Notes: a model not told the origin generated them from the sequence alone. Counted from the first letter of the stretch, positions 1,898 through 38,296 are shown. The stretch: 64,000 nucleotides of DNA from Candidatus Sericytochromatia bacterium (GCA_036675505.1 JAKFEW010000047.1:8821-72820), one strand, 5' to 3'. Numbers and translations are program-made.

Positions 1898-1900
1898 GTG

Positions 1901-3356: not shown

Positions 3357-3367
3357 TAAGTGAAGAA

Positions 3368-3402: not shown

Positions 3403-3474
3403 GTTGGGGCATACACCGGGCATACAACGGGCGAGAGGTCTCGGCGCGCCGTCGTGGCCCGGAACATCACCTCA

Positions 3475-5663: not shown

Positions 5664-6160
5664 CCACCACCAACCGCGCCCGCCACGAGCTCACGATCGT
5701 GTCGGACACCGAGATCCGCATCACGCGCGACTTCGACGCCCCGGCACGGCTCGTCTTCAAGGCCACCACCACGCCCGAATACATGAAGCGCTGGTATGGC
5801 TGCAGCGAGATGGAAATGACCACTTGCGAGATCGACCTGCGGCCCGGTGGCGCATTTCTCTGGGTGCTGCGCGACCAGGACGGCTCGGAGTACAAGTTCA
5901 AGGGCGAGTACCGTGAGGTCGACCCGCCCCACAAGGTGGTCTTCACCGAATCATTCCTGATGGGTGACACCTGGACCAACGGCGCGCTGAACACGGTCGC
6001 GATGAACGAGCATGACGGCAAGACCACGGTCACGATCGGGATCGTGTACGCCTCGAAGGCGGACCGCGACGGCCACCTGGGCGCAGGCATGGAGACCGGC
6101 ATGGCCCAGGCCCACACCCGCCTCGACGCACTGCTCGCCGAACTGGTCCAGGCCGCCTAG
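5660..6160 (+). CDS. SRPBCC-superfamily protein (Aha1/AHSA1-like)
   Basis: ELTIVSDTEIRITRDFDAPARLVFKATTTPEYMKRWYGCSEMEMTTCEIDLRPGGAF... matches the SRPBCC/AHSA1 family. Its ATG overlaps the ArsR stop (ATGA). The ArsR-SRPBCC pairing is recurrent. Confidence 0.75.
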   Translation: MTTTNRARHELTIVSDTEIRITRDFDAPARLVFKATTTPEYMKRWYGCSEMEMTTCEIDLRPGGAFLWVLRDQDGSEYKFKGEYREVDPPHKVVFTESFLMGDTWTNGALNTVAMNEHDGKTTVTIGIVYASKADRDGHLGAGMETGMAQAHTRLDALLAELVQAA

Positions 6161-6273
6161 GCGGCCTGGAGGGAATTTTACGGAAGGTTAACGCCAGCAA
6201 TGGCGACCGCGAGCCGACAACTCCTTCCAGTTGGAGTCGGTCGGCCGCGGGTGCGGCGGCCTGGGAGGTCACC

Positions 6274-10200: not shown

Positions 10201-10371
10201 ATGTTGGTTGTACCCTATGCCGCCGTTCACGCTTCGGTGGGAGCTGTCCGGGCATCCTTCAGGGAGGCTTAGCGAAAACACAACCCGCGCCGGGCCTTTT
10301 TGTCGCCCCGCTGTCGCCGGCGCGCGCCGATGACCTTCTCGTGAGTGTGAGCGATTGCGAAGGAGCCACCG

Positions 10372-10728
10372 ATGCTGATCACCAAGACCCCGCCGGCCAC
10401 CATCCCCACGGCGCCCGTGGCGAGCGAGGCGCCCGCGTCGATCGGCACCCCTACGATCAAAGTGTCGCCGGACTCGCTCTTCCTGACGCCGCCTGCGACC
10501 CCCCAGGCCCCGGCCAAAGAGCCGATGAACCGGTACGAGGCCGCGGTGAAGAAGGCGGCCGTGGTCGGCACGATCGTCGGCGGCATCGCCATCACGTCGG
10601 CCGTGTGCATCGCGCTCGCGAGCTCCATGGGCTCGGTCGGCATCGCCGTCCTCGGCGTCGGCCTCGCGGCCGACGCCCTGATGGGCTTGCTGGCCTGGCA
10701 CCTCGTCAAGACGCCGCTGACCAGGTAA
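10372..10728 (+). CDS. Small membrane protein (two predicted TM helices), hypothetical
   Basis: 118 aa with very strong GC3 bias in the + frame. AAGGAG lies upstream. The C-terminal half is hydrophobic (AAVVGTIVGGIAITSAVCIALA...IAVLGVGLAADALMGLLAW). I preferred it over the overlapping antisense ORF 10269..10709. Confidence 0.5.
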   Translation: MLITKTPPATIPTAPVASEAPASIGTPTIKVSPDSLFLTPPATPQAPAKEPMNRYEAAVKKAAVVGTIVGGIAITSAVCIALASSMGSVGIAVLGVGLAADALMGLLAWHLVKTPLTR

Positions 10729-22991: not shown

Positions 22992-24167
22992 CTACTTGCC
23001 CTTGCCCTTGCCCTTGTCGCCCGACGCGTCGCCCGCAGGGCCATCGTCGTCCCCGTCGTCGTCGTCGCCGTCGTCGTCGCCCGAGCCGCTGCCGTGCCCA
23101 GCGCCGCCCGACGGGGTGTCACCCGCCGGCGCGTTGCCGGCACCCGCGCCACTGCTGCCACCGCCTGCGGCGCCGCTGCCACTCTGGTCGCCGCCGCCGT
23201 GTTCGGTCGGGGCGGCCGGCGTGGCGGGCTGCGCCGGTTGCGCGGCGTTGCCCGGCTCAGCAGGCTGCGCGGGCGTCGCGGGTTGGGCCGGCGTCGCGCC
23301 GTTGTCGCGCGGGGCTTCCTGCGGCGCCGCGGCGGCCGCCTTCTTCGCTTCATCGGCAGCCGCCTGCTTCTCCACTTCGGCGGCCTGCTTCGCCTCGGCG
23401 ACGGCGGCCAGGGCGGCCTGGGCGGCTTCGGGCCGCTTCTCGAGTGCCTTCTCGAGCGCCTTGTCGGCCGAGCCGCCCGGCTTGAGATCGATCTGGATCT
23501 CGCCGGCGTCGGAGGCGGCCTTTACGGCGTCTTCGAGGGCCTTCAGCTTGTCGGGCTTGATCTGGGCGAGCTCCTTGGGATCCTTGAGCTTCGCGCGCAC
23601 GCCGTCGGAGACCGCCGTCGAGACCGGGTCGACGCGCAGCTCTTCGGCCGCGTTGGCCTTCATCAGGCGGCCGAGCCGGAAGCCCTTGCCGCGAATCTCG
23701 ATGAAGGCGACGGTTCCTTCGGGCACGCCCGCGAGCGAGAATTTGCCCAGGGTGTCGGTCTTGGCCGGCGCCACGCCGGGGAAGGGCCGGCCGTCTGCGG
23801 CCAAAAGCACGACCTCGGCATCCGGCACAGGCGCGAGCGCCTCGGCGGCGAGCAGGCCGAATCGCGGGACGCTCAGCGAGCCGCCGCCATTCGCGACGAT
23901 CGAGCTGCCGCCGTTCGTGACGATCGAGCCGCCGCCATTCGCGACGATCGAGCCGCCGCCGTTCGCAATCACCGAGCCGCCGCCGTTTGCGATGACGCTC
24001 GCGGGGGCCTGGGCCACGCCGCCAATCATGATCTTGGGGGCGATCCGGGCCGCGGGGCCACTGACGCGGTTTTCTACGAGGCCGCCGTCGGGTTTGGTCA
24101 GGCTCGGCGGCTGACACGCGGTCAGCACCAGGGCGAGCGGAAGAGCCAACGGCCAGGCACGCAACAT
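22992..24167 (-). CDS. Lipoprotein with ANGGGS octapeptide repeats and a carboxypeptidase-regulatory-like domain (paralog of 7456-10200 and 36629-38296)
   Basis: Lipobox LALVLTAC. VIANGGGSVIANGGGSIVANGGGSIVTNGGSSIVANGGGS repeats. AEVVLLAADGRPFPGVAPAKTDTLGKFSLAGVPEGTVAFIEIRGKG matches CarbopepD_reg. The C-terminus has an Ala/Lys/Glu coiled-coil-like region and a Gly/Asp-rich tail. I took the start at the second ATG (24167), which has a GAAAGGGGG RBS. Confidence 0.7.
   Translation of the reverse strand: MLRAWPLALPLALVLTACQPPSLTKPDGGLVENRVSGPAARIAPKIMIGGVAQAPASVIANGGGSVIANGGGSIVANGGGSIVTNGGSSIVANGGGSLSVPRFGLLAAEALAPVPDAEVVLLAADGRPFPGVAPAKTDTLGKFSLAGVPEGTVAFIEIRGKGFRLGRLMKANAAEELRVDPVSTAVSDGVRAKLKDPKELAQIKPDKLKALEDAVKAASDAGEIQIDLKPGGSADKALEKALEKRPEAAQAALAAVAEAKQAAEVEKQAAADEAKKAAAAAPQEAPRDNGATPAQPATPAQPAEPGNAAQPAQPATPAAPTEHGGGDQSGSGAAGGGSSGAGAGNAPAGDTPSGGAGHGSGSGDDDGDDDDGDDDGPAGDASGDKGKGKGK
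23877..23996. repeat. 24-bp tandem repeat x5 encoding the ANGGGS repeats
   Basis: The units gagccgccgccattcgcgacgatc / gagctgccgccgttcgtgacgatc / gagccgccgccattcgcgacgatc / gagccgccgccgttcgcaatcacc / gagccgccgccgtttgcgatgacg are read directly in the sequence. Confidence 0.8.
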
Positions 24168-24252
24168 CAGGATCCCCCTTTCCATACGGAAGTCCTATAC
24201 CCGAACCCTTGCCTGGTTGACACAGCGGGGCGCGGTCCGTCCGGTCATCGCC

Positions 24253-25882: not shown

Positions 25883-25954
25883 GCCCCGATGGTCTAGTGG
25901 TTAGGACACCACCCTTTCAAGGTGGTAACACGGGTTCAATTCCCGTTCGGGGTA
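25883..25954 (+). tRNA. tRNA-Glu (anticodon TTC)
   Basis: Cloverleaf folded by hand. The acceptor pairs gccccga with tcggggt (G1-U72 wobble). The D-arm is gtct/agtggttaggac. The anticodon stem is ccacc/ggtgg and the loop is cTTTCaa. The T-arm is acggg/ttcaatt/cccgt. The discriminator is A and there is no encoded CCA. It resembles the E. coli tRNA-Glu architecture. Confidence 0.85.
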
Positions 25955-25966
25955 CTCGCTTTCTGG

Positions 25967-26000
25967 CCCCGCCTGCGATAGCAGGCGGGGTCTTGCTTTG
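25967..26000 (+). terminator. Rho-independent terminator after tRNA-Glu
   Basis: ccccgcctgc-gata-gcaggcgggg perfect 10-bp stem, followed by tcTTgcTTTg. Confidence 0.65.
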
Positions 26001-26287
26001 AGGGCCGGTGCCGAATTTGGACCAACAGCCGCGTCGCCGGAGAAGATTCGAAGAGCGAGGCTATCGGCTCATCTTCAAGTTCGAATCCCGTCGGGTCGGT
26101 GGGTGCCTGTCAGCGAAGATGACGTCGATCGGCCGTTACAAGGCCCGGCGCAAAGGCGGCGGCACCTGAGGGTCGGCGTGCCGCGCCCGGCGCCCCCCGG
26201 CCTGTCTGGCGGGGAGCGGAAGTCGATGCCATTTGGCTCACGGGAGCGTGGGCGACGGCCTCGCCGGAACAGTCGGCACTGCTCCCC

Positions 26288-26878
26288 TTACCTGGGCACG
26301 CGCGCGACGATCGTGCCCCGCAGCTTGAATGTGCCCGTGGACCTGGCTTCAGCCACGGTGTCCGGGCTGTCGTCCGGCTCAAACATCAGGTCGAGGTTCA
26401 GGTCGATCCGATCGTCTTCCAAATCGTCGACCTCGACCGTCCCCGACGTCGCATGCCAGCGCCACCCATTGGTCGCGGTCGACTGGTCGAACTGCACGTT
26501 GGCCGTGCCGGGCGGGTCGTCCTTGCCGACCCGCCGTACGGTGTAGGTCCGCCCGCTTGCCGGTTTGCCCCAGATGGACACCGCAATCGAGCCAACCTTG
26601 CCCGTGTCGGCCTTTGGCCGCAGCGAGAAGTTCGGGCCCCAGAAGTTCGAGCCCATCTTCCCCAGGCCCTGCTCGTGGACGACGTCGGCGATCGGGCTCG
26701 CATCGAAGTTGCCTGGCGTAATGGCGGAGAACCACAGCTTCGCCCGCGTGCCTCCTTCGTCTTCGAGGGACACGAGCGTCACCTCGCCCGGCCGCTTTTC
26801 GTCGAGGCCCGCGAGCAGGTAGCACCCGGCAAGCGTCGAGGCCGTGCCGAACACGGCGACGGCCAGCGTTTGGGCCAT
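26288..26878 (-). CDS. Hypothetical lipoprotein
   Basis: MAQTLAVAVFGTASTLAGC lipobox at the trimmed start (26878). The longer ORF-track N-terminus overlaps repeat copy 1 and looks spurious. Confidence 0.5.
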   Translation of the reverse strand: MAQTLAVAVFGTASTLAGCYLLAGLDEKRPGEVTLVSLEDEGGTRAKLWFSAITPGNFDASPIADVVHEQGLGKMGSNFWGPNFSLRPKADTGKVGSIAVSIWGKPASGRTYTVRRVGKDDPPGTANVQFDQSTATNGWRWHATSGTVEVDDLEDDRIDLNLDLMFEPDDSPDTVAEARSTGTFKLRGTIVARVPR

Positions 26879-27095
26879 GCAGTTGCGAATGAAGCTCAAC
26901 TCAACCTCCTTGGAGCAGGCGAGCACTTTGGGCCGCCCAGGCAGCCCACATTGTACATCGGGAGGCGTGGCGCTGAACCTGATCACGATTTCGAACATTT
27001 GCACCGCCGCCTGTCCGAATTGGCCCGCGTCATGCGGCACCCGGTACAAGCGTCCGGACCTCCGGGGTGACCATGGCTCGGCAAAGCTCGCCAGC

Positions 27096-27144
27096 GAAAG
27101 TTCTAACATCGTTCCGTTGGGGGTACAAGCGAGCAAGGGTTCCG
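27096..27144 (+). repeat. Island direct repeat, copy 1 (GAAAGTTCTAACATCGTTCCGTTGGGGGTAC-aagcgag-CAAGGGTTCCG)
   Basis: It shares a 16/16 core with copies 2 and 3. Its 3' half (CCGTTGGGGGTAC) resembles the tRNA-Glu 3' end (CCGTTCGGGGTAC). Confidence 0.7.
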
Positions 27145-27168
27145 TCGATCAGTCGATGGGACCCTTCT

Positions 27169-27687
27169 TCATTCGGATGCCGTCTCGGGCTGCGGGCGTG
27201 GCGTTACTTCTCGCCCCCACTTCATGAATTCGGCCCGATCCATGGTCTTCTGCTTGTCCTCGGCCAACATATCGAACGCCTCGTCCGTCCGGCCGCCCAG
27301 CATCGCCTCGAGGTACCGCTGGCCGCCCTTCACGTAGATCGCCGTGTCGGTCGGCACGCGCGTGACGGCGTCGGCGATTTCAACGCCCACAGGGTCGTGT
27401 ACGATGAGCGTTGAGAGTTGATCGCCGAGAAAGCCGACGATCATCGACAGCTCGCGCTTCTCGAACACGAACAAGCCCTTGAACTGGCGAGACCGGCGGG
27501 ACCCGTTGAGGTTGTCGCTGAACTCGTCCGACTTGATCGACTCGAGCGCTCCGAAGCGCGTCGCGATCTCCTTGACGAACGCCGCGAATAGCTCCGGATC
27601 GACCGCCTTGGCCTTGAGCTCGGGCGCGAGCTGCGCCTCGATCTGGGCCAGGCTGGCGCCACGCGTGGCCTCGAAGAATTGTTTGGT
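27169..27687 (-). CDS. Hypothetical protein. Only the C-terminal 172 codons are convincing. The 5' part is probably frameshifted or truncated (pseudogene candidate).
   Basis: The well-formed coding part is TKQFFEATRGASLAQIEAQLAPELKAKAVD...MKWGREVTPRPQPETASE. The upstream part of the 439-aa ORF is Cys/Arg-rich junk. A different frame (ORF 27441..27950) carries a plausible continuation ...PLVRIEFDVPVP. Confidence 0.35.
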   Translation of the reverse strand, partial: TKQFFEATRGASLAQIEAQLAPELKAKAVDPELFAAFVKEIATRFGALESIKSDEFSDNLNGSRRSRQFKGLFVFEKRELSMIVGFLGDQLSTLIVHDPVGVEIADAVTRVPTDTAIYVKGGQRYLEAMLGGRTDEAFDMLAEDKQKTMDRAEFMKWGREVTPRPQPETASE

Positions 27688-27922
27688 GTCGGCACCGGAA
27701 CGTCGAACTCGATGCGCACGAGCGGGCTCACCGTCGGCGCTCTTGCAAGCGGCTTGACCTGGCCCACGGCAACGCCGGTCAGTCGTCCGGTAGACGAGAC
27801 AAGCGTAAGCGTCGTCGTCGCACGGGGGCTGGCCGAGCTGTCCGTCCAATTCCGATGGCGGGAGGGTATGCAAGTCCCAAGGGCATGAATTCCATCGGCG
27901 GTAGCTGCGGCAGTGTGACTCG

Positions 27923-28357
27923 ATGCGTTGGACCAAGCTAGCGAGCGCATGGGCGCTGGTGGTGGTAGCCGGGCTGTATTCGGCGAGCTTGGTGCCGAGC
28001 TGGCACCTGGGCACGATGCTGTGGCCTTGGGCCGCGATCGGGAGCTTCCTGGCGTTGGCTCTCCTTCTTTGGCAGACGCCGGATGACGTCGATTTCGACG
28101 TGTGGCGGCGCTTCCCGACGTGGACCGTTGTTGGCTGCGCGTTCTTCGCGATCAGCGTGATGGGGAACACCATATACCTCGGCGACGAGATCGCGGTCCG
28201 CGACGGTCGACTTGCGATGCGGCAAGACTCCAGGTGGACTTCCATTTCGGAAGACGAACCGGCTCGCCAAATGGACATGAAGCTCAGGCTGGGCCTGGGC
28301 TTGGTGCTGCCGGGCTTCCTCTTCCTCGTCCTGGCCAATCGCCGTCGAGGCGGCTGA
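27923..28357 (+). CDS. Hypothetical membrane protein (3-4 TM helices)
   Basis: Hydrophobic segments (LASAWALVVVAGLYSASLV, AAIGSFLALALLLW, VVGCAFFAISVMG, LGLGLVLPGFLFLVLA). Coding-like GC3. Confidence 0.5.
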   Translation: MRWTKLASAWALVVVAGLYSASLVPSWHLGTMLWPWAAIGSFLALALLLWQTPDDVDFDVWRRFPTWTVVGCAFFAISVMGNTIYLGDEIAVRDGRLAMRQDSRWTSISEDEPARQMDMKLRLGLGLVLPGFLFLVLANRRRGG

Positions 28358-28488
28358 CGTTCGAGCGGCGTCGCCCAGCTGCAAGGGGGCAAGCCACTGC
28401 GATATGCTTCCGAGGTCAAGACAGCCACAGCGGTGTCTACCGGCCAGTGGAGAAGTTCTTGGGTTGCAAGCGCGGCAGCAAAGCTCAC

Positions 28489-28540
28489 GAAAGAAGTTCT
28501 AACATCGCCCCGTTGGGGGTACTATCATGCAAGGGTCCCG
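28489..28540 (+). repeat. Island direct repeat, copy 2 (GAAAGaagTTCTAACATCGCCCCGTTGGGGGTAC-tatcatg-CAAGGGTCCCG)
   Basis: Read directly in the sequence. It has a 3-nt insertion relative to copy 1. Confidence 0.7.
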
Positions 28541-28832
28541 CCTGGATGCAGGCGGGACCTTCATTTTGAGGGCAGCCGCTACTCCATCTCCATCACGTCG
28601 ACGAACCGCCCGTCGATGCCCTGGCCGTTCGCGAAGTTTCGACCCGTTGACACGGGTGTCGAGGCCGTTCGCGGGCTGTCGTCGAATACGATGCGGTTCC
28701 AAGCGCCCCGACTTGAATCAGAAGCCGGACCGTCTCCTCGTCGAAGCACGCGAAGGACCGATTCCCGGTTTCGCAAATGTGTTGACAATTCCGTGTGATA
28801 AGGCTACCTTGGGGACAGGGAAAAAGGTCCGA

Positions 28833-29111
28833 ATGCCCTTTTGGAACCGGAAGCGAAATGGCATCACCTTTGTCTTCAAGTCGGACCCGGTTGACGACAC
28901 GATGGCGCATATCTTCGCCCGGCACCGCAAGACTGAGGCGCAGGCGATGGCCATCTGGTTCGGCTTCACAAAGGAGCGGTAGAACGACGAGCACCAGCGG
29001 TTCGAGTCCTACACAGACGCGGAAGGCCTATTCTGGAAGTGGCATGACAAGGACACCGACAACACCCTTGTCCTGGTCATCAGCTGCTTCGATCGTCGCG
29101 AAGGCGAGTAA
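28833..29111 (+). pseudogene. brnT: BrnT-like (DUF497) ribonuclease toxin gene interrupted by an in-frame TAG at 28980-28982
   Basis: The N-terminal half (...ITFVFKSDPVDDTMAHIFARHRKTEAQAMAIWFGFTKER*) resembles BrnT FEWD..K...N..KHGVSFEEA..VF. Reading through the TAG in the same frame gives NDEHQRFESYTDAEGLFWKWHDKDTDNTLVLVISCFDRREGE*, which matches the BrnT C-terminal block (ER....G...LLVVV.T.R...IRIISAR). Confidence 0.55.
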
Positions 29112-29122
29112 GGGAGGCTGTT

Positions 29123-29473
29123 ATGTCGACCAACACCAACCCACGCCCCCGGCGCGTAGCGCCTGAACCTGGTCTGACGGCGTCTCAGGCCGAGATGAGC
29201 GAGCGTGAGCCGTGCACGTTCGACGATCCGGCATCGGAGGCTCATGCCGAGGCCGCGATCGCCCAGGCGGACGCGGAATTGGCCGCCCGAAAGCCCAACG
29301 TCAACTTTCGTTGGGAAGCCGCGCCGCTTGACGTGGTTCGGCTCGCGGCCGAACTCGCGGGCGTCCCCTATCAGACCTGGATGAAGCAGGTGCTATACAA
29401 GGAGGCCGTCGCGGCCATCACGGCCGCCCGCGAGGTGGACCCCCGCGCCCGCAAGCTCGCCGGCGGCGGCTAA
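29123..29473 (+). CDS. brnA: BrnA-like antitoxin (DUF4415/RHH-like)
   Basis: RKPNVNFRWEAAPLDVVRLAAELAGVPYQTWMKQVLYKEAV matches the BrnA C-terminal signature (...isiRLpe.lle.lk.lA...gvpYQtlin..L.e...). GGGAGG RBS. It lies 12 nt after the brnT stop. Confidence 0.65.
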   Translation: MSTNTNPRPRRVAPEPGLTASQAEMSEREPCTFDDPASEAHAEAAIAQADAELAARKPNVNFRWEAAPLDVVRLAAELAGVPYQTWMKQVLYKEAVAAITAAREVDPRARKLAGGG

Positions 29474-29528
29474 CCACTTCGCCGATGTCAGCCACGACGG
29501 GCATCCGGTTCATGGGTGTGGGATTCTC

Positions 29529-30296
29529 ATGTCCCCCATGATCATGCGAAGCGGATGGGTCTACTGCGACTGCTGGCGTGCCGGCCGGATCGGCGCGCTG
29601 CCGTTCCCGCGAGAATGGGTCAAGGTGGACCCCGAGTCGGGCGGGACGTGGGTCGAGAACCCGGCTTGGCCTCACCCTCCCGCCGACGGGACGCCGGCTC
29701 GCGAGGCGTTGGATGCCTCCAACGAGGCGCTCCGGCAGGCCTGTCCGCATGGCTTCAACGACGAGATGCTCACCAACGTGGACGGCGTCGACGGGCTCGC
29801 GAGGCGCCTGAAGGCCAATGGCGCCCCACACCTCTCGCACCTCATGGCCTTGTTGGAGGACCCCGGCCCGTACACGTCGCCGGCCGTCGCAGAGTCCGCA
29901 CTGCCGGAGCTGACGGTGGCGGAGGCTACGCTCGTCACGGAACGGGGCCTGGCGATCGTGGATGCGGACACCGGGGAGACCCTCGCAGGGCCACTACCGC
30001 CCGAGCTTCACCAGCAGCTCTACTTACCTCTGGATCACGAGCGAATCTTGTACCTGGAGGGCCGCGAACTGGTTCTGAAGCGCCACTTTCGGGTCGTCGA
30101 GGTGCGCCGCTTCAGGGCGCGTGACGTCCGGCTGCGGACCCGGAAGGTCGAGGATCTAGGAAGAGGTCCGGGGATCACCGCAGGGCGACGTTTCCGCGTC
30201 GAGGAGCGGCCGTATCGGCCCTATGCGGACCTGGTGAGCAGCCTGCGGGCGTTGTGCCTGGAGTCCGTGCGCTTCCGGAACCCGATCGTGTGGTAG
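29529..30296 (+). CDS. Hypothetical protein (255 aa), unknown function
   Basis: Strong GC3 bias. No recognisable domain. It lies immediately upstream of, and co-oriented with, the HTH antitoxin-like gene. Confidence 0.5.
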   Translation: MSPMIMRSGWVYCDCWRAGRIGALPFPREWVKVDPESGGTWVENPAWPHPPADGTPAREALDASNEALRQACPHGFNDEMLTNVDGVDGLARRLKANGAPHLSHLMALLEDPGPYTSPAVAESALPELTVAEATLVTERGLAIVDADTGETLAGPLPPELHQQLYLPLDHERILYLEGRELVLKRHFRVVEVRRFRARDVRLRTRKVEDLGRGPGITAGRRFRVEERPYRPYADLVSSLRALCLESVRFRNPIVW

Positions 30297-30430
30297 CCCG
30301 GCCATCTTGGTCAGGCCGGCATCCAGCCGTGCACGGTCCTCCGCGATCGCCCGGGATCCACACGACCTGTTCGCCTGGCCATTTGGGCCGCTCAAGCCGC
30401 ACCGGGCAGCAGTTCCTGAACTTCGGGCTC

Positions 30431-30694
30431 ATGGAGGGCCGATATGAAGACGCAGATGAGCTGGCGATCAAAGCCGAGCTGGCTTCGAGCATCCACGCGA
30501 TGGTCGAGGCGCGCGAGTTCACTCAGGAGCAGGCTGCCAAGGTCCTTGGGATGCCAAGACCCGAGGTGAGCCACCTGATGCGCGGGCGGCTCGCGCGCTT
30601 CACGATCGACCGGCTCGTGCGGGCCCACAACGCCCTCGCCCCCGACATCAGGATCGGGATCTCGTCTCAGCCTCGAAAGGCTGTACAGATGTAG
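30431..30694 (+). CDS. XRE/HTH_37-type antitoxin-like DNA-binding protein (HigA-family-like)
   Basis: AREFTQEQAAKVLGMPRPEVSHLMRGRLARFTIDRLVRAHNALAPDIRIGI matches the HTH_37/HigA2-like antitoxin pattern (..tQ.eaA..lg..q..vS.l.rGk...fsldrL...l.aLg..v.i). No RelE/HigB-like toxin lies adjacent. Confidence 0.6.
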   Translation: MEGRYEDADELAIKAELASSIHAMVEAREFTQEQAAKVLGMPRPEVSHLMRGRLARFTIDRLVRAHNALAPDIRIGISSQPRKAVQM

Positions 30695-31189
30695 ATGATG
30701 GCGACCGAAGGAGACGCGGTCGTGCCCCTGATGAGCTACGACGACTTCTTGAAGCTCGAGATTCCGGGCGAGGTGATCGAGGGCGTGCTCTATCTGGGAG
30801 GCCGGCGCGTCAAGGATTGGCGCAAGCTTGCGGAGTTGCTTGACGACGGCGACGAGGATGGCTAGGTCGTCGTTAGTCGGGTCAGGCCCTCAGCCAGGCG
30901 TGGATCAGGATGCTCAGGTCCAGATAGGTGCGGAGCTTCACTTCCCTTGATCATCTCAATCAGCGCCACCAGTTCAGGTGTTGAATTATGCGCGCAGCGG
31001 GCAGGTCACGATGTCCGAAGGGACGTGACCGCCCGACTGTGATCCAAGTGGTGTGGCCATCCTGGCGGTTCGATCCCCGTTGGCAGGGACACGCCCGAGG
31101 CAGACGCGTGTGCTGCGCGCCTGACGGCACCCTTCGGCAACCGCCTGCATTTCAACGAGCGGGCGGCGGGCGGCAGCCAAGCAGGGCCG

Positions 31190-31945
31190 TCAGCGGCCGC
31201 CGGCGACGTCCCACCAAGGCACGCCCTGGCTATCGTAGATGCCCACGGCGTAGTCGCGCACGGCCACCAAGTGGCCATTCGAGGTGGCCCTCAGGGCCCG
31301 CCAGGGCCCCTTGGGGCCGGCCGAAATGGGCATGTAGAGCAACGCGCCGGCCCGGCGCGGATCCACGCCGACGCCCGCCGAGTCGCCGCCCTCCGACGTC
31401 GCCGAGGTGCGATCGCCCACCATGGGCGCGAGCGCCACGGTCCCGGCCAGCACGTCCGGCCCGAGCTTCCCGCCCCACGGGCTGCGGTCGTAGTCATCCG
31501 CCGATTTCGCCTGCCACATCGCCACGAACTCCGCGCCAGTCGGCAGACGGTGCGCGCTGCCACGGTACGCCTCCACCATGGCCACAGCGTTACGGATGCG
31601 GTCCTGCGCGTAGCGATCCTGGGCCATGCGGACGACCACGCCGCGTGGGACCACGCTGCAGAGCAGGAGCAACGAAAGCAGGCCCGCCCCCGCAAGGCCG
31701 CCGGGCGTGCCGGGCAGGCGGCTCGCCTTGCCGGCCGCCTTGAACCCGGCGACCACGAGCATGGCCACGGACACGCTCGCGCAAGCCGCCGCCAGCCGAT
31801 CGAGGACTTCGGTCTCGCCCCGGATCAAGTCGAAGAAGACCGCCGGCTGGAGAGCTGCGGGCCCGTTCCAGATCGTGACGGCGCTGCAGGTGAAAACGTA
31901 GAGCACCACCAGGGCATAGGGGATGCCGATGAGCCACTTCAACAC
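31190..31945 (-). CDS. Hypothetical membrane protein
   Basis: The N-terminus has TM segments (LIGIPYALVVLYVFTCSAVTIW, VSVAMLVVAGFKAAG...LLSLLLLCSVV). Coding-like GC3. Confidence 0.5.
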   Translation of the reverse strand: MLKWLIGIPYALVVLYVFTCSAVTIWNGPAALQPAVFFDLIRGETEVLDRLAAACASVSVAMLVVAGFKAAGKASRLPGTPGGLAGAGLLSLLLLCSVVPRGVVVRMAQDRYAQDRIRNAVAMVEAYRGSAHRLPTGAEFVAMWQAKSADDYDRSPWGGKLGPDVLAGTVALAPMVGDRTSATSEGGDSAGVGVDPRRAGALLYMPISAGPKGPWRALRATSNGHLVAVRDYAVGIYDSQGVPWWDVAGGR

Positions 31946-32248
31946 GTCCGGGCCTCCTTCATGGCACCTGTGTACCCGGCGTCACCGGAGGCCGTGATTT
32001 CGTGGCTGCCCTGGCGCGTCCGGATTCGAGCCGCCGCGCCCCGAAGCGATGCCCCGCCGGCCGCCAGCGCCAAGTACATCCTTGGTGCGACCCCCGTCCT
32101 GCGCGTCGAGTTCAAGCGGTTCATCGCCGAGCATGGGGACGTGGCCCAGCCGGTGCCCGGGAGGGCGGCGAACCAGAACACGATGCTCTGATCAAGCTGG
32201 TACCGCTTCGCACGCCAGGCCGGTCATCGCTACGCTGAAGTGGTGGAC

Positions 32249-32278
32249 GAAAGTTCTAACATTGTCCCGTTGGGGGTC
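32249..32278 (+). repeat. Island direct repeat, copy 3 (GAAAGTTCTAACATTGTCCCGTTGGGGGTC)
   Basis: Read directly in the sequence. It lacks the CAAGGGTYCCG tail. Confidence 0.65.
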
Positions 32279-32307
32279 TCACATTCCGGCCCCTCCAGCG
32301 CCTCGAC

Positions 32308-32859
32308 TCAAGTCACTTGAGTTGGGGCTTCTTGCTTCGCGTCGTTTCGACGCTGCGCCCGTGCCCGGATCAGCGCGATGGCGGCCTGGCAGGTGTCTTC
32401 GAGCGTGTCCTGGATCGCGACCGCCGGGCATTCCTGCGCGAAGCGGTGGCGGATGTAGCGCGCTCCGGTGAAGCCTTCTTCGATCCCAACCGCGAGGGCC
32501 ACGCCGTCTCGCCGGTGGTTCTCCTTCCACTCCGCGAGCTCGAAGCGCGTGGTCTGGGCGTAGGCGCGCTCGCAGCGGTGGAAGCGCTCGGCGGCGAGCC
32601 AGAACAGCACCACGCCGTCAGTCCCCGCCCGCCGCAGGTACGCCGTCTCCCAGTCGACTTGTTCCTCGTACATCGCCTGGTCGAAATCGCGATCGACGTC
32701 CACCGGCCGGCGCGGGTTGGCGATGTGGACGTCGGGCGCGTGGCGCAGGAGGTAGGCGATTGCCTCGTCTTGCCAGGCCGAGGTCCAGGTCGGACCGGCC
32801 AGGAAGACCAGCGGACCTTCGATGACAGGATGCGCCGGGGCTACGATGAGCTTGCCCAT
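32308..32859 (-). CDS. Nucleoside 2-deoxyribosyltransferase-like (SLOG-superfamily) protein
   Basis: MGKLIVAPAHPVIEGPLVFLAGPTW... carries the 'FLAGP' Rossmann-like signature of Ndt-like and DUF4406 proteins. GGAGGA RBS. I trimmed the start to M12. Confidence 0.5.
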   Translation of the reverse strand: MGKLIVAPAHPVIEGPLVFLAGPTWTSAWQDEAIAYLLRHAPDVHIANPRRPVDVDRDFDQAMYEEQVDWETAYLRRAGTDGVVLFWLAAERFHRCERAYAQTTRFELAEWKENHRRDGVALAVGIEEGFTGARYIRHRFAQECPAVAIQDTLEDTCQAAIALIRARAQRRNDAKQEAPTQVT

Positions 32860-33026
32860 GGATCGGTCCTCCACAAAGTGTAAAGTGTACAATAAGCAGT
32901 GTAGGCGAGATGGGAACGGCTGGTCAAGCCTTCGGTGCTCGAATCATCAAGCTCCCAGGGCTCGGCTTCGCCGGCGGTCTGCCAGATCCCCGCGTTCCCA
33001 GTCAGGATTGCGCGGAGGGTCTCGAC

Positions 33027-33914
33027 TCAGCGCCGCAGCTGTTGGGCCGTAAAGGCCGAGTAGTCCTCGGATGGCGAAGCGACGTCCGAGGACGTGAGGC
33101 CCGCGGACGCCAAGACGCGGCCGAGCTGGCCCGCGAAGGCGTATTCCCGATCGGTGGTCAGCGGCGCGACCGGCGCGCCTTCGACCTCGAATAGCTCGGC
33201 CGGACGGCCCTGTGCGTCGCGCACCGCGTGCCGGCGCAGAATCAGCCGGGTACCGTCGTCCGCGGATGTCGTGGCCCAGGTCTGCGTCTGCTTCATCGAT
33301 GACGGCAGATAGGGCTCGCGCGTCAACATGCCGCCGCTCAGGCGCCGCAGCACGTCGCCGTTCAGCTCGCGCCAGATCCGGTCTACAACGTCTCCCTGCC
33401 GGCGCAGCGGCTCCCCGCCGTTCTCGAGCAAGCCGAAGAAGGTCCGAGTCGCGCCGATCAGGCCCGCGGCGGGCTTCAGGTCGTCACGCCAGACCCAGCG
33501 CGTGTCCAGGTTGATCGGCACGCCGCCGTCCGGCACGATCAAGCGGAGACTGTAGTGACTGAGCTGCCAGGCGGCGGCGTCCCCGCTGAGCTGCAGCGTA
33601 AGCGTGGGGCGCTGCTTGTCGTCGAAGCTGTAGTTCCTGGAGAAGGACGCGACCCACCACTGCTCGAGCTCCACCTCGGCGCTCTCGGGCCGCGTGGTCC
33701 AGGTGAAGGCCCGCTGAAGGCGCGAGAAGCCCTCGGCGGTCAGCGTTGCGTGGTAGGCGACGGAGAGGTGGGCCTCGGGCGTCAGTCCGGCGGCACGCAC
33801 ACCGAGCGGGGCGCGCGCCGTCAAGGCCACGGTCGGCGAGCCCGGGCGGGCGGTGGCGCATCCGGCGAGGGTGACCAGCGCGAGGGTCGCGAGGAGCAAG
33901 GGACGACAAGACAT
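33027..33914 (-). CDS. Hypothetical lipoprotein
   Basis: MSCRPLLLATLALVTLAGC lipobox at the trimmed start (33914). Confidence 0.5.
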   Translation of the reverse strand: MSCRPLLLATLALVTLAGCATARPGSPTVALTARAPLGVRAAGLTPEAHLSVAYHATLTAEGFSRLQRAFTWTTRPESAEVELEQWWVASFSRNYSFDDKQRPTLTLQLSGDAAAWQLSHYSLRLIVPDGGVPINLDTRWVWRDDLKPAAGLIGATRTFFGLLENGGEPLRRQGDVVDRIWRELNGDVLRRLSGGMLTREPYLPSSMKQTQTWATTSADDGTRLILRRHAVRDAQGRPAELFEVEGAPVAPLTTDREYAFAGQLGRVLASAGLTSSDVASPSEDYSAFTAQQLRR

Positions 33915-34037
33915 GCCATGCCTTCTCGGGCGGTCGATCCTGGAACATACGTCCGCGGAAAAATCCTTAACTCGTGCTTGCTCGCGCTGCGATTCGGCGT
34001 AAGTCGTCGACTTCGGGCGAGGCCTGGTTTGCGACGA

Positions 34038-34068
34038 AGCGTGCCCCGAAGGTTCAATAACCGTCCAG
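34038..34068 (+). repeat. Island direct repeat, copy 4 (most diverged: GAAGGTTCAATAACCGTCCAGTTGGGGGTAC)
   Basis: It shares GTTGGGGGTAC and GGTTCAAT with the T-loop/acceptor region of tRNA-Glu. A CAAGG sequence follows ~25 nt downstream. Confidence 0.5.
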
Positions 34069-34086
34069 TTGGGGGTACTGGCAAGT

Positions 34087-35445
34087 TCAATCTCGCGCGA
34101 TGGGCAAGGTGAACCAGAAGGTGGCGCCACGGCCTTCCTGGGAATCCACGCCGATTTGCCCACTATGCGCCTCGACGAGATGCTTCGCGAGCACGAGCCC
34201 AATGCCTGCGCCGCCGACATCGCGCGTCGCGCTCATGTCGACCTGGGAGAACACCTGAAAGAGCTTCCCGAGCTCCTGCTCCGCGATGCCGACGCCCGTA
34301 TCCCGGACGTGAAACCGCACCATGTCGCCCTCGAGCGTCGCCCCGACGGTGATGGTCCCCGTCTCGAAGCTGAACTTGATGGCGTTGTCGACGAGGATCG
34401 CCAGCACCTGGGCGAGCCGCATCTCGTCGGCGAGCACCGGCGGCAGGTCCACAGGAACCTCGTTCTCGATGACGCGCCGCTGGGCCGCCTCCGCCACCTC
34501 GTCGAGCACCCGCTCCACGACCGGTACGACGACGACGGGCCGGGGGTCGACCGTGAACCGACCCGCCTGGACGCGCGAGAGGTCGAGCAGGTTCCCGACC
34601 AGGGCGAGCAGGCGCTCGCTGCTCGCGGCGGCCTTGGCGAGGAACTCCTGCTGCTTCGGCAGGAGCGGCCCCGCAATCTCGTCTTGGAGGATGCTGATGA
34701 ACCCCATGATGCCGTTGAGGGGCGTCCGCAGCTCGTGGGAGAGGACGCCCAGGAACTCGGTCTTCATCCGGTCCGCCTGCTGGAGCTCGGCGAGCTGCCG
34801 GAGGATGTCCGCCTCCATCTTCTTGCGCTGCGAGATGTCCGAGAAGGTGATGGCGAGACCGTTCGCCACCCGGATCACGAGCACGCGGAACCAGCGGGCG
34901 CTGTCCTCCCGCTCGTAGCGGTACTCGCCTTCGAAGGGCTCGCCGGTCCTCAACACGTGCAGGTACTCGGACCAGAGCCCCGCGTCGTGGATGTCGGGGT
35001 GGAGCTCGAGCAGGCGCTTCCCGGCGAGGCTGTCGAGCGCGTACAGGCGCTGGGCCGCCGGGTTCGTGAGCACGCACTCGAAGTCGACGACCTCGCCATC
35101 CGGGCCGGGGACCGAGCGGTAAACAAGCACGCCGTCGACCGAGGACTCCAGGACCCAGGCCAGGAGCATCTCCTTCTCATGCAACTCCAGCGTCTGTTGG
35201 TAGATGTCGAGCTGGAGGCGATCCACCCGGTCATCCGAGGCGTCCCGCTCGCCCTTCAGCCTCGCGATCGAGACGCGCTGGCCCGCCAGGGAGCCCGCCT
35301 GGCGCTCGATCGTCGCCTCCGCCGCGCCAAGGTCCGCGGCGCCCTGCTCCGCGGCCGCGATCAGACCATCACGCTCCCCTTCGAGGGAGTGGAGCGCGGC
35401 CTCGGTCGAAGGATCGGGGTTCCCGTCGGGCTCGAGGGTGGTCAT
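34087..35445 (-). CDS. PAS-domain sensor histidine kinase (orphan)
   Basis: H-box FLGVLSHELRTPLNGIMGF. N/G1/G2 ATPase motifs (LVDNAIKFS, DTGVGI, GGAGIGLVLAKHLV). A PAS-like segment and an N-terminal coiled coil. Its ATG overlaps the stop of the upstream GNAT remnant (ATGA). Confidence 0.85.
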   Translation of the reverse strand: MTTLEPDGNPDPSTEAALHSLEGERDGLIAAAEQGAADLGAAEATIERQAGSLAGQRVSIARLKGERDASDDRVDRLQLDIYQQTLELHEKEMLLAWVLESSVDGVLVYRSVPGPDGEVVDFECVLTNPAAQRLYALDSLAGKRLLELHPDIHDAGLWSEYLHVLRTGEPFEGEYRYEREDSARWFRVLVIRVANGLAITFSDISQRKKMEADILRQLAELQQADRMKTEFLGVLSHELRTPLNGIMGFISILQDEIAGPLLPKQQEFLAKAAASSERLLALVGNLLDLSRVQAGRFTVDPRPVVVVPVVERVLDEVAEAAQRRVIENEVPVDLPPVLADEMRLAQVLAILVDNAIKFSFETGTITVGATLEGDMVRFHVRDTGVGIAEQELGKLFQVFSQVDMSATRDVGGAGIGLVLAKHLVEAHSGQIGVDSQEGRGATFWFTLPIARD

Positions 35446-35852
35446 GCGGGCATCGTAGCATGAGGCCAACCCCGCCCAAACCCTCTGTTCGCCGCTGGGC
35501 CTGGAGCCGGCCGGTTGTGCCCACGCCCGTGGCGGAGCGGTCGCGGCCGGGCGGCCGACTCGCCTTCCAGGGCGGGCAGCGGGAAGAACCCGTAGCGGTC
35601 ATACCAGGCCACCGCCGGAGGCTTGGCGTCGACGACGATGCCCACGCATCCCACTGCGTCGGCCTGCGTCAACGCGAGATGGATCACCGCATGCAGCAAC
35701 GTACTACCGATCCCTCGCCCTTGGGCGGCCTTGCCGATATGGTGGCGAAACTGGTTCTGGCCGGCGTATTTGAGGAAGAAGCGGTCGAGATCGGCATCGC
35801 CGCTCGTGAAGGCGGTGCGGTGGTCCTGTTCTCGGAGTGCCCTAACTTCCAT
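35442..35852 (-). pseudogene. TacT/AtaT-like GNAT toxin remnant with a ~50-aa internal deletion and a run-on C-terminus
   Basis: It aligns to Salmonella TacT in two blocks. HRTAFTSGDADLDRFFLKYAGQN matches [23 protein letters not shown], and HAVIHLALTQADAVGCVGIVVDAKPPAVAWYDRYGFFPL matches [40 protein letters not shown]. The ~50 residues between them, which span the central beta-strands, are missing. The last ~45 codons read through into the HK promoter region. Confidence 0.5.
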
Positions 35853-35958
35853 GCCGCTTCATCAAGGCTCGCAACGCCGGCGTCGGCTGCGGCGCTTCCA
35901 TCTGCTGCAACATCGCTTCCGCCGCCTCCGAAACACGGGCGTTGATTTGCACAGCCAT
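35842..35958 (-). CDS. Truncated RHH/DUF1778-like (TacA-like) antitoxin remnant (38 aa)
   Basis: MAVQINARVSEAAEAMLQQ... matches the TacA N-terminus (VQLNLRAKESQRALIDAAAE). GAGGTGA RBS. It overlaps the toxin ATG by 11 nt. It is below the ORF-track size cutoff. Confidence 0.4.
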   Translation of the reverse strand: MAVQINARVSEAAEAMLQQMEAPQPTPALRALMKRHGS

Positions 35959-36065: not shown

Positions 36066-36560
36066 ATGTCACCCGACGACACCCTCACCACGCCCGTCCA
36101 GTCCTCCCTCGCCCGCCTGATCGGGGAGTGGGTCGGCACGACAAGCACCCGCTTCATGCCCACGGACGCGTTCGAAACCTGCGAGGTGAAGGCGAGCATG
36201 CGCTGGGTGGCGAACGGCACGTTCGTCCTCCACGAGTACGACGGGCGCTTCAACGGTGAGGAAGCTCAAGGCGCGGCCTTCTACGGCATCGACCCCGAGA
36301 GCGGGGAAGGCTCGGCGGCCTGGGTCGACAGCTTCCACTCGAGCGCCGCCCCGATGCTCTCGAAGGGCCAGGCCGCGCCCGGCGAGATCCTGAACGTGAC
36401 GACGACCTACGGGGACCCGGCCGAGCCGTGGGGCTGGCAGACCGTCATCACCGAGCAGGGGCCGGACGCGATCATGATCGAGGCCTACAACATCCCGTTC
36501 GGCCGCGAGCGCTACGTCGCGATCGAAACCAAGCTCCGGCGCGCGTCCGCGCGGGCCTGA
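36066..36560 (+). CDS. DUF1579-like hypothetical protein
   Basis: 164 aa. The pattern (GEWVGTTSTRF...FETCEVKASMRWVANGTFVLHEYDG...) matches DUF1579-family proteins by recollection only. Confidence 0.4.
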   Translation: MSPDDTLTTPVQSSLARLIGEWVGTTSTRFMPTDAFETCEVKASMRWVANGTFVLHEYDGRFNGEEAQGAAFYGIDPESGEGSAAWVDSFHSSAAPMLSKGQAAPGEILNVTTTYGDPAEPWGWQTVITEQGPDAIMIEAYNIPFGRERYVAIETKLRRASARA

Positions 36561-36628
36561 AGCCGTCGCCGCCGGGACCGCCGCCGCCGGCCTGTGATCC
36601 GCTCCACCGCGCCGTGAGGAGGACCGCC

Positions 36629-38296
36629 GTGTCGCGTCCGATCGCCCCTGGAATCGCTCTGGTGCTCGCGCTCTCGGGCCCGCTCGGCGGCTGCGCCGGC
36701 GGCGGCCAGCCGCCCGCGCCGGCGCCGCGAGCCAGCGGGAAGCCGGCGATCGCGAGGCCCGGGGCCTCCCTGGTCGAGCTGGAAGGGCGCGTGCTCGCCA
36801 CGGCCACGCTGATTTCGGACAAGGGCGGCGCCATCCTGTCGAACAACGGCGCGGGCATCGTCTCCAACAACGGCGGCGCGCTCACGGCCAAGGTGAAGCT
36901 GGCGCTGGCGCAGGCCGCGGAGCCGTGGCAGCTGGTCGAGAAGGCCGAGGTCGAGCTGGTGGACGCGGCCGACCGGCCCGCGCCGGGCGTCGCGCCCGTG
37001 CGCACGGACGGCACCGGACGCTACCGCCTCCAGGCCCCGCCCGGCACCTGGTTGGTGCGCGTGAAGGCCAACGGCGTGCGGCTCAGCGCCTTCGTCCGCA
37101 TCGGCGCGGCGGCCACGAAGGCGGACGTCTCGCCGGCCACGACCGTGGTCGCCGAGTACGTCCGCGAGCAAGCGAAGGCCAGCCAGGCCGCGTTGGAATC
37201 GGTCGCCGAGGCCTCGGTCGCGGCGCTGGTCGCGCGCGTGGAGCCCGTGCTGCGGTCCGGCGCGGTGGCGCTGGAGCTGGCGTCCCCGGCGGCGGCGGTG
37301 AAGGTGCTGGAGCGTGCCGCGGCGGCCGAGCCGCTGGTGAAGACCCAGGCCGCGGCGGTCGCGGCCGAGCTGGGCGTCGCCTTGGCCGGCGCCGGCGCGC
37401 GGCCCTCGACGGCGCCGACCAGCGTGCCCGGGGAACCCTCGCCCAAGCCGGCCTCGACCCCCACGCCGGGCGCGACCCCCACCCCCGACCCGCTGCTCGG
37501 CACCATCATCGCCGGGCAGGCCCAGCTGGATCCGAAGCCGGCGTCAGCGGCGGACGCGGCCGACGCCGTCGGCGTGGACCTCGGCGTGCCGGACAGCCTG
37601 GCCGTCGCCGCCGACGGCACCGTGTTCTTCACCAGCCCGGCCGGCACGCTGCGGGCCATCACCCCCGCCGGGGCCTACGTCGCGGCGCCGCTGGCCGCGC
37701 CGATCGGCTCCCGGCTCGCCACCTTGAACGGCGACGCGCTGTTCGTCGACGCCGCCCGCACGGGCATCGTCGCCGTCGCATCCGGCGCCGGCCCGTTGCA
37801 GGTCCGCCGGCTCGTGGCGGTGAAGGGGGCGCCGCTGCCCGCCGGGGCGCCGCTCGCGGCGGCGGGGGACGGCACCTTCCTCGTCGGGCACACGCGCATC
37901 GGCGTCGACGGCGTCCAGGCGGATCTCCTGGCCACCTCCGCGAGCCTGGCGGGCAAGGCGGAGCCCCAGGCGGGCACGTTGCCGTCGGCCCTGGCGTACG
38001 GCGTGGGCGGCCGGCTCTTCGCCGGGTACGGCGCGAAGGACGCCAGCGGGAACGTCTACGAGGTGCTGTCCGGCGGGCAGATCCTCGCCACCTACGGGTC
38101 CTCGACGACGTGGACCCTCGCCACGGACCGGGCGGGGCGGCTGGTCATGTCGCAGGGGGGCCGGGTCTCGCGCCGCGACGGGCCGGGGGCGAGCGTCGAG
38201 CTCGCGCGGGGGCTGGCTTGCGGGGCGATCGCCTTCGCGCCCGACGGTACGCTCTACTACGTCGACGTCGGCGCCATCCGGCGGCTCAAGCCGTAG
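36629..38296 (+). CDS. Lipoprotein with SNNGAG repeats, a carboxypeptidase-regulatory-like domain and a C-terminal beta-propeller-like region (third paralog)
   Basis: GAGGAGG RBS before the GTG at 36629. Lipobox LALSGPLGGCAG. ILSNNGAGIVSNNGGAL repeats. AEVELVDAADRPAPGVAPVRTDGTGRYRLQAPPGTWLVRVKANG matches CarbopepD_reg. Confidence 0.7.
   Translation: MSRPIAPGIALVLALSGPLGGCAGGGQPPAPAPRASGKPAIARPGASLVELEGRVLATATLISDKGGAILSNNGAGIVSNNGGALTAKVKLALAQAAEPWQLVEKAEVELVDAADRPAPGVAPVRTDGTGRYRLQAPPGTWLVRVKANGVRLSAFVRIGAAATKADVSPATTVVAEYVREQAKASQAALESVAEASVAALVARVEPVLRSGAVALELASPAAAVKVLERAAAAEPLVKTQAAAVAAELGVALAGAGARPSTAPTSVPGEPSPKPASTPTPGATPTPDPLLGTIIAGQAQLDPKPASAADAADAVGVDLGVPDSLAVAADGTVFFTSPAGTLRAITPAGAYVAAPLAAPIGSRLATLNGDALFVDAARTGIVAVASGAGPLQVRRLVAVKGAPLPAGAPLAAAGDGTFLVGHTRIGVDGVQADLLATSASLAGKAEPQAGTLPSALAYGVGGRLFAGYGAKDASGNVYEVLSGGQILATYGSSTTWTLATDRAGRLVMSQGGRVSRRDGPGASVELARGLACGAIAFAPDGTLYYVDVGAIRRLKP

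Follow-up and report, generated by a model that had tools for sequence, protein, structure and literature searches.

A probable tandem-accretion island at the 3′ end of tRNA-Glu in a Sericytochromatia bacterium

Introduction

Chromosomal integrons, for example the Vibrio superintegrons, gather small cassettes in which toxin–antitoxin (TA) cargo is frequent and no recombinase is carried. Tandem islands at the ends of tRNA and transfer-messenger RNA (tmRNA) genes are already well described, and the stretch analysed here, 64,000 nucleotides from a Candidatus Sericytochromatia bacterium (GCA_036675505.1, JAKFEW010000047.1:8821-72820; 'the window'), holds what is, as we read it, an ordinary decayed accretion island of that tRNA/tmRNA-end type, with four direct repeats downstream of a tRNA-Glu(UUC) gene. 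Sericytochromatia are non-photosynthetic; almost everything known of them comes from metagenome bins, and their sister group is the photosynthetic cyanobacteria. In the literature we found no such islands described for this little-studied group, in which the locus would be a recombination hot spot gathering accessory genes, mainly TA modules.

The tandem islands at ssrA of Dehalococcoides contain repeats of the 3′ end of the target gene, each preceded by a conserved motif; a conserved mismatch between target and repeat was used to place the crossover; many of these islands are without an integration module and were read as cis-mobilizable elements, and the attachment (att) site lies inside the 3′ end of dsiB (McMurdie et al., 2011; PMC3146451). 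Tycheposons of Prochlorococcus, defined by a tyrosine recombinase (in some by another integrase) and a replication module, form islands that are seeded at tRNAs and in which newer insertions push older elements deeper into the island (Hackl et al., bioRxiv 10.1101/2020.12.28.424599). Finally, passages of one review describe cis-mobilizable elements (CIMEs) as having lost their integration and transfer genes and kept attL and attR, and their accretion, in streptococci and others, as giving tandem arrays when a new element enters a resident's att site (PMC5704250, citing Pavlovic, 2004 and Bellanger, 2011).

The Sericytochromatia locus resembles the Dehalococcoides islands in having several tandem segments downstream of one small-RNA gene, with short direct repeats of its 3′ end; it differs in target (tRNA-Glu rather than tmRNA) and in host. 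Like tycheposon islands it is seeded at a tRNA, has partial tRNAs and degenerate remnants scattered through it, and comes from a host within the broadly defined cyanobacterial phylum, although tRNA-Glu is not among the targets in the passages quoted from the tycheposon work (10.1101/2020.12.28.424599).

Results and discussion

Four repeats of the tRNA-Glu 3′ end

Comparison with the target gene and with related genomes makes it probable that the 3′ end of tRNA-Glu(UUC) anchors a tandem-accretion island, at 25.96–34.1 kb, and that the repeats in it are att-type junctions. The target, the sole tRNA gene of the window by ARAGORN and Rfam, the junctions and two possible relics are as follows.

25883-25955, + strand: tRNA-Glu(UUC), anticodon TTC (ARAGORN; Rfam tRNA, 71 bits); intact target gene, on the attL side
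25965-25992, + strand: terminator-like hairpin of the intrinsic type, 3′ of tRNA-Glu (-32 kcal/mol, z-score -3.3)
26079-26094, + strand: decayed relic of the tRNA-Glu T-arm/3′ end, about 130 nt past the tRNA (expectation value, E, about 2; weak alone, at a recurrent position)
27043-27169, + strand: junction unit 1; left arm 27043-27094, tRNA-3′-like core 27095-27126, hairpin 27135-27166 (z -3.9); profile E 6e-23
28440-28568, + strand: junction unit 2; arm, core 28491-28522, hairpin 28532-28561 (z -3.9); profile E 8e-25
31067-31083, + strand: orphan tRNA-Glu 3′ relic GGTTCGATCCCCGTTGG inside segment 2 (E 0.12, weak), possibly a remnant of another junction
32195-32326, + strand: junction unit 3; arm, core 32248-32278, hairpin 32300-32328 (z -2.5); profile E 1e-21
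33998-34107, + strand: junction unit 4; arm of the L014 type (see below), core 34047-34077, hairpin lost (z +1.5); profile E 2e-19; the last recognisable junction

A repeat search returned the four copies as a single family (27095-27133, 28491-28529, 32248-32286 and 34047-34085; identity 74–100%), all of them intergenic, downstream of tRNA-Glu(UUC) and on the same strand. The original prediction had placed repeats of about 45 bp at 27096, 28489, 32249 and 34038; the four copies are real, but their positions are now 27095, 28491, 32248 and 34047, and the motif as typed there gave no match, being one base short (CG-YY-CC, not CG-Y-CC). The corrected core, GTTCTAACATCGNNCCGTTGGGGGTAC, matched copies 1–3 against an expectation of zero (100 shuffles). 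A fifth short match, at 38708, lies within a coding region and was rejected as chance.

The resemblance to the tRNA-Glu 3′ end that had been predicted was borne out. The 3′ part of the repeat, CCGTTGGGGGTAC, is one base apart from the tRNA end, CCGTTCGGGGTAC (CCGTT[G]GGGGTAC in the repeats and CCGTT[C]GGGGTAC in tRNA-Glu, a match of 12/13 nt), and copy 4 retains GGTTCAAT. The repeat core is an exact match to the tRNA-Glu variant of four related loci (L014, L015, L017 and L019).

Each repeat is the core of a longer unit

Alignment of 11 units (window, L013, L014 and L018) showed that the core is real but belongs, in each repeat, to a unit of about 135 nt rather than of 45 bp. The left arm of the unit covers 60–75 nt, in which likeness to the tRNA is limited to a GTTC(T/G)A that resembles the T-loop. 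Between this and the core, which consists of 11–15 nt of the tRNA-Glu 3′ end, the units have 5 nt more than the tRNA. As in Dehalococcoides, an element-specific motif that cannot be aligned to the target stands directly 5′ of the repeat, and there is one consistent mismatch position.

At 10–20 nt past the core there is a GC-rich hairpin of 10–14 bp with a U-rich tail. Such a hairpin is present in 10/11 units, including 3/4 in the window, and at all six tRNA-Glu loci folded (L019 not among them), with z-scores of -2.4 to -5.6. The stem sequences vary among units, and it is therefore the structure of the hairpin and not its sequence that is kept; the terminator part of the units is probably functional. 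The tail CAAGGGTYCCG, seen by the original prediction in two of the copies (1 and 2), forms the hairpin's 5′ half. Over core and tail, copy 2 agrees at about 27/28 nt with L019, where the sequence is the tRNA-Glu end and the spacer that follows it, and the terminator of the third L014 unit (r3) is of the L015 type, whereas L014 r1, r2 and r4 and L018 r2 have the terminator type of their own genome's tRNA. The L015-type terminator of L014 r3 and the L019-type 3′ flank of copy 2 indicate that terminator types have been shuffled between lineages.

A profile built from the 11-unit alignment was run on both strands of 175 kb (window and relatives), with E > 0.3 taken as chance level. Above that level it recovered the tRNA-Glu loci, the 11 source units and, in L014, one additional decayed unit; all of these were on the tRNA strand, and every unit lay downstream of tRNA-Glu. 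Within the sequence covered from four genomes, the unit is confined to the tRNA-Glu locus, and it can serve as a searchable marker for this locus, its islands and the cassettes exchanged between them.

These results bear on whether the repeats are a generic dispersed element, such as a repetitive extragenic palindrome or a miniature inverted-repeat transposable element, or else a module with an RNA or regulatory function (a tRNA-like RNA, or an insulating terminator cassette), in place by chance or selection and unrelated to integration. The strong U-tailed hairpins that follow most units, with their structure kept despite sequence change, would suit such a module, and the copy counts are those of the 64-kb window and the relatives' loci. 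Against it, four copies fall within 7 kb and none in the remaining 57 kb of the window or in the relatives' non-island flanks; the repeat search found no terminal inverted repeats at the window repeats; arm and core of the 11 units gave no consensus RNA structure (RNAalifold; -1.35 kcal/mol, 0 compensatory pairs); and ARAGORN and Rfam (the latter even at a lenient E<=5) recognised none of the units, calling only the tRNA. Scans of public collections point the same way: a degenerate pattern of copies 1–4, which represents the window variant only and misses those of L014 and L018, gave 5, 3 and 1 matches in genome, metagenome and viral contig collections, all of them chance and none similar outside the pattern itself. 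When the viral collection was scanned for the P′-side motif and the L014/L018-type core, the sole match, again due to chance, was in an AT-rich phage contig. With the finding, given below, that the core follows the local tRNA-Glu variant, this explanation is largely refuted for the sequence covered here and we regard it as the least probable of those considered.

The same locus in relatives

The cation-efflux gene (cation diffusion facilitator, CDF, transporter) upstream of the tRNA has its closest relatives on contigs and metagenome-assembled genomes labelled Sericytochromatia, and the affiliation with Myxococcota that had been proposed was not upheld. Homologues of this protein were used to anchor the relatives' loci in eight other assemblies. 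Exact copies of window proteins turned up only on short Logan contigs from two runs, apart from a 100%-identical cation-efflux protein listed for a longer NCBI contig. The upstream flank (CDF transporter and neighbours) is syntenic with the window in L013–L018, and the order efflux gene, small open reading frames (ORFs), tRNA-Glu is conserved in L013, L014, L015, L017 and L018. L019 differs in context, with about 2.3 kb between efflux gene and tRNA-Glu; L016 and L020 end before any tRNA, and L017 ends at or near the tRNA-Glu.

Synteny with relatives was compared, as the original prediction had envisaged. Nucleotide synteny between the window and its closest relative, L013 (83% protein identity), stops at window position 25997, 42 nt beyond the tRNA (blastn), and 8 kb further L013 has AAAGTTCTAACGTCGTCCCGTTCGGGGTAC and then a terminator hairpin. 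This sequence is clearly the repeat seen in the window, and its last 15 nt are identical to the end of L013's own tRNA-Glu. Downstream of tRNA-Glu and on its strand, L014 has four near-identical units and a fifth, decayed one; two units lie downstream of tRNA-Glu in L018. The tRNA and the units of L014 bound four cassettes of 1029–1657 bp, each with one two-gene TA-like module, namely

L014 cassette: Gp49/HTH_37 pair
L014 cassette: HigB and antitoxin
L014 cassette: Fic and partner
L014 cassette: toxin-like ORF and CopG-type antitoxin

The cargo bounded by units in L013, L014 and L018 differs between genomes and consists mostly of TA modules. Units of one array are far more alike than units across genomes, and two arm subtypes coexist within single arrays.

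The core sequence is TTCGGGGTA in L013, TTGGGGGTA in L014 and TTGCGGGTA in L018, and in each it co-varies with the tRNA-Glu variant of the same genome (TTCGGGG, TTGGGGG and TTGCGGG respectively). This tracking of the host tRNA is the strongest evidence that the cores arose by recombination with tRNA-Glu.

A locus with and without one cassette

L014 and L015, whose core genes are 79–86% identical, differ at this locus by one segment. In L015 a HigBA cassette follows directly past the tRNA terminator; in L014 the orthologous HigBA cassette (82.6% identity) sits past unit r1. The distance from the tRNA core to the r1 core in L014 is 1185 bp and comprises the terminator, a Gp49/HTH_37 TA pair and an arm, so that L014 equals L015 plus 1185 bp (the TA pair and one unit) placed precisely at the tRNA 3′ end and terminator. 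What follows the L015 tRNA has its orthologue, in L014, in the flank after r1 and not in that after the tRNA. Read from the two sequences, this is the pattern of attL/attR against attB, produced by insertion at the tRNA 3′ end or by exact deletion of one such segment. The 1185-bp segment contains no recombinase, and the duplicated block in L014, core and terminator together, is about 60 nt.

A weaker T-arm/3′-end motif recurs about 130 nt past the core, after the tRNA or a unit, in the window, L013, L014 and L015 (in L013 at 9150-9167 and 1054-1072; in L014 at 9286-9300, 7041-7059, 5387-5404 and 4357-4374). Each instance is of low significance singly; because these weaker relics keep a constant offset, they suggest older junctions abutting newer ones.

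Tandem accretion and the points to be set against it

The serial integration at the tRNA-Glu 3′ end that had been predicted gains support from the homologous units in L013, L014 and L018, from cores that track the tRNA variant and from the L014/L015 pair. A family of small integrative elements would circulate among Sericytochromatia, each with an attachment region made up of an element-specific arm of 60–75 nt, 11–15 nt identical or nearly so to the acceptor 3′ strand of tRNA-Glu, and an intrinsic terminator of its own. Recombination at the tRNA 3′ end would insert the element in such a way that the tRNA regains a 3′ end and a terminator, while the junction left at the far end would consist of the arm, the tRNA-3′ core and the sequence that formerly lay next to the tRNA. 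Repeated events would stack the cassettes, pushing older ones outward, and mutation would later decay both cargo and junctions. Four clear junctions and two weaker relics would correspond to at least four events, or to fewer if a composite moved as a block. We infer that the recombination was site-specific, that the enzyme acted in trans or was lost, and the order and number of events.

A number of observations weigh against this account. All four cores in the window have G where the resident tRNA-Glu and that of L013 have C, and are therefore imperfect copies of the present target. The tRNA-Glu of L014, L015, L017 and L019 has G at this position, and the elements, or a composite of them, may have come from a lineage of this G type, with a crossover 3′ of the mismatch that would let the distal junction keep the element's base. 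An empty attB for the window's own lineage was not found among the relatives. The island has no defined distal boundary, and a histidine kinase gene and a GNAT gene beyond unit 4 may or may not be part of it; the distribution of the unit was established over the window and the relatives' loci. No integrase was found at 25.9–36 kb of the window, in L013 or within 9.4 kb of the L014 array. Lastly, the duplicated block of about 60 nt in L014 is long enough for RecA-dependent integration, and the data fit homologous as well as site-specific recombination.

A wholly homologous origin would involve Campbell-style, RecA-dependent integration of circular or incoming DNA with the tRNA-Glu 3′ end and terminator, or segmental duplication, with no dedicated recombinase. 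Besides the L014 block of core and terminator, it would account for arrays without an integrase, and homology between units would permit deletion or insertion by general recombination. It is at odds with the conserved arm of 60–75 nt that stands directly upstream of the core in 11/11 units from four genomes whose core proteins are 58–83% identical: such an arm resembles an attP arm, and homologous integration would have no need of it. In the window units, moreover, only 7–13 nt are identical to the tRNA, which is too short for RecA, and the switch from arm to tRNA is sharp and at a fixed position in every unit, as in published site-specific cases (PMC3146451). We therefore hold this origin to be improbable, if a little less so than that of a dispersed or RNA element.

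The recombinase and the integron-like alternative

The absence of an integrase is compatible with CIME status and incompatible with an autonomous element. Like CIMEs, composites at this locus could be movable as a block, which would explain internal junctions with a foreign tRNA variant; CIMEs are decay products of integrative and conjugative or integrative and mobilizable elements of Firmicutes and Actinobacteria, whereas here no conjugation or mobilisation genes or remnants of them were seen, and the att sites are putative. In the arrays seen there was also no DsiB-like serine recombinase or integration module of the Dehalococcoides kind, and the cassettes are much smaller (1–4 kb), are rich in TA genes instead of carrying dehalogenases; the repeat unit, moreover, has a terminator of its own. 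The hallmark module of tycheposons (recombinase with primase/helicase) was likewise not found in the window island, where the cargo is TA modules and small hypothetical genes.

An integrase does occur in L018, where a 311-aa tyrosine recombinase lies between the two units and adjoins neither. The sole integrase of the window lies 23 kb from the array:

1901-3232, - strand: P4-type integrase (Arm-DNA-bind_3 and Phage_integrase domains)

About 80 nt beyond the start of this gene, a fragment at ~3315-3356 (+) resembles the 3′ 42 nt of tRNA-Lys(UUU), from the anticodon loop CTTTTAA to the acceptor end, and is followed by a terminator. GC content is low at 3–4 kb and there is no intact tRNA nearby; a tRNA-model check of the fragment at 3.3 kb gave no significant match. 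Positions 1-3400 are probably a separate element at the left edge, an att end belonging to an island that continues beyond the window.

Three features of the units and cassettes are less usual among islands of this kind: the conserved arm is long, the terminator is built in, and the TA cassettes of L014 are tiny, hold a single module and lack a recombinase. They leave room for an integron-like system of cassettes mobilised in trans. In its general form this alternative holds that the locus is an active platform: a recombinase whose gene lies elsewhere in the genome would excise non-autonomous cassettes of 1–4 kb (cargo and one unit of about 135 nt) and insert them at tRNA-Glu or any unit of the array, which TA cargo would stabilise. 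The L014 cassettes of 1029–1657 bp, four between the tRNA and r4 with one TA-like module each, would fit such a platform, as would the lone 1185-bp TA cassette without an integrase by which L014 and L015 differ; the L014 cassettes of 1.0–1.7 kb may never have carried an integrase. Units that are much closer within arrays than between genomes, two arm subtypes together in single arrays, and the lack of an integrase in the arrays of the window, L013 and L014 are further points in its favour. Like integron arrays, the locus has small, mostly single-module cassettes split by a lineage-specific repeat of about 120–135 nt.

Set against this, no recombinase candidate was found, the L018 array does contain a tyrosine recombinase, and loss of an integrase by deletion, as in CIME formation, explains the same data. 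In the window itself the units are decayed (copies 74–85% identical to one another), and cargo with a nonsense codon and truncations suggests an inactive array. The original prediction had set aside an integron, and rightly: there is no IntI or attI in the 64-kb window and no inverted attC-type structure in the units, which are direct copies of the tRNA 3′ end and terminator, anchored at a tRNA, and not palindromes with R″/R′ cores. We consider an active platform unlikely, and no better a chance attaches to its more specific version, a tRNA-Glu-anchored system in Sericytochromatia in which cassettes of 1–2 kb, typically one TA pair and one site of about 135 nt made of a tRNA-Glu 3′-end mimic and a terminator, would be captured, reshuffled and exchanged between lineages by a recombinase acting in trans, with the window as an ageing example. 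If cassettes were mobilised in trans, the locus would offer a tRNA-anchored route to cassette arrays that is distinct from integrons.

Cargo and composition of the island

Tandem accretion, our preferred reading, divides the region into segments bounded by the tRNA and the units, with the following contents.

26288-26878, - strand: segment 0, hypothetical lipoprotein-like ORF (third-codon-position GC content, GC3, 0.83; no Pfam match)
27169-27873, - strand: segment 1, hypothetical ORF of 234 aa (gene call on Logan contig L006)
27923-28357, + strand: segment 1, small membrane protein (weak DUF2231 match)
28776-29473, + strand: segment 2, TA-like pair and promoter; toxin-like ORF 28833-29111, CopG/BrnA-like antitoxin 29123-29473
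29529-30296, + strand: segment 2, hypothetical ORF of 255 aa
30431-30694, + strand: segment 2, HTH_37 (HigA-like) antitoxin without an adjacent toxin (E 3e-20)
30695-30865, + strand: segment 2, ORF of 56 aa
31190-31945, - strand: segment 2, hypothetical membrane protein of 251 aa
32308-32859, - strand: segment 3, nucleoside 2-deoxyribosyltransferase-like protein (PF15891, E 3e-8)
33027-33914, - strand: segment 3, hypothetical lipoprotein of 295 aa
34087-35445, - strand: distal to unit 4, PAS-HisKA-HATPase histidine kinase
35442-35852, - strand: distal to unit 4, truncated GNAT, a TacT-like remnant with weak Pfam matches; a short ORF lies upstream (to 35995)

Mean GC3 is lower in ORFs of the island than elsewhere in the window, as had been predicted (0.835 versus 0.908; Mann–Whitney p=6e-4), and the orphan helix-turn-helix antitoxin reported earlier is the HTH_37 gene of segment 2. 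The first gene of the TA-like pair had been described as a BrnT with an amber codon next to BrnA; the in-frame TAG is real (28980-28982), and is TGG (Trp) in the L014 orthologue, but the name BrnT has no support, since no family was found for the toxin-like ORF in Pfam, PHROGs or NCBIfam. The toxin has probably been inactivated and the antitoxin kept, judging by this codon. In L014 the cassette bounded by r3 and r4 matches the pair and its promoter (28776-29452) at 81% nucleotide identity; the pair is absent from the L013 island, a patchy distribution that suggests horizontal transfer. The 81% identity was rejected as proof of transfer, given that neighbouring core genes of the window and L014 are 70–77% identical and RF3 86%.

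An opposite-strand reading frame through the unit

On the opposite strand, every one of the 11 units encodes the peptide YPQxDxxRTLVxxFxxALxDPEVxQLL, which begins in the core and extends into the arm; the two L018 copies differ mostly at third positions. The frame stays open for >60 codons further upstream in L018 r1 (5806-6255, +) and by the L017 tRNA (1-208, +), and these two ORFs ('gene X') share 48% identity (E 7e-18), including PTYRKPFD. Codon-position statistics of gene X are weakly coding-like, and no homologue or family was found in Pfam, PHROGs, NCBIfam, word-indexed protein searches or tblastn against plasmids and phages. The ORF may belong to an element gene whose 3′ end overlaps the att site, which we offer as a lead and not as a finding; as at the Dehalococcoides att site inside the 3′ end of a reverse-strand gene, it reads through the core.

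At 30407-30496 of the window, the strand opposite the HTH_37 gene's 5′ end is weakly similar to the arm peptide (…ALHEPEVQELL; E 0.018, small database); neither core nor hairpin follows it, and the similarity is probably due to chance.

Paralogues and contig ends around the island

Paralogues that are secreted or lipoprotein-like, and in which tandem (I/L)(I/V)(S/A)NNGGG repeats precede a CarboxypepD_reg-like domain, are encoded in the window at 7456-10701 (-), 22992-24185 (-) and 36428-38296 (+) and in L014 at 2511-3836. Two of these, inversely oriented, stand on either side of the tRNA-Glu island; the L014 copy is at the far end of its array.

The 135-nt unit would explain why assemblies tend to break at tRNA-Glu. 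The ends of Logan contigs L012 and L006 fall at about window 27087-27101, in unit 1, and that of L011 at about 25918, in tRNA-Glu; as a sign of excision or circularisation at the repeats these breaks are no more than suggestive. The ends of L016, L017 and L020 are likewise at or near tRNA-Glu, a pattern compatible with population heterogeneity or with repeat-induced branching of the assembly graph.

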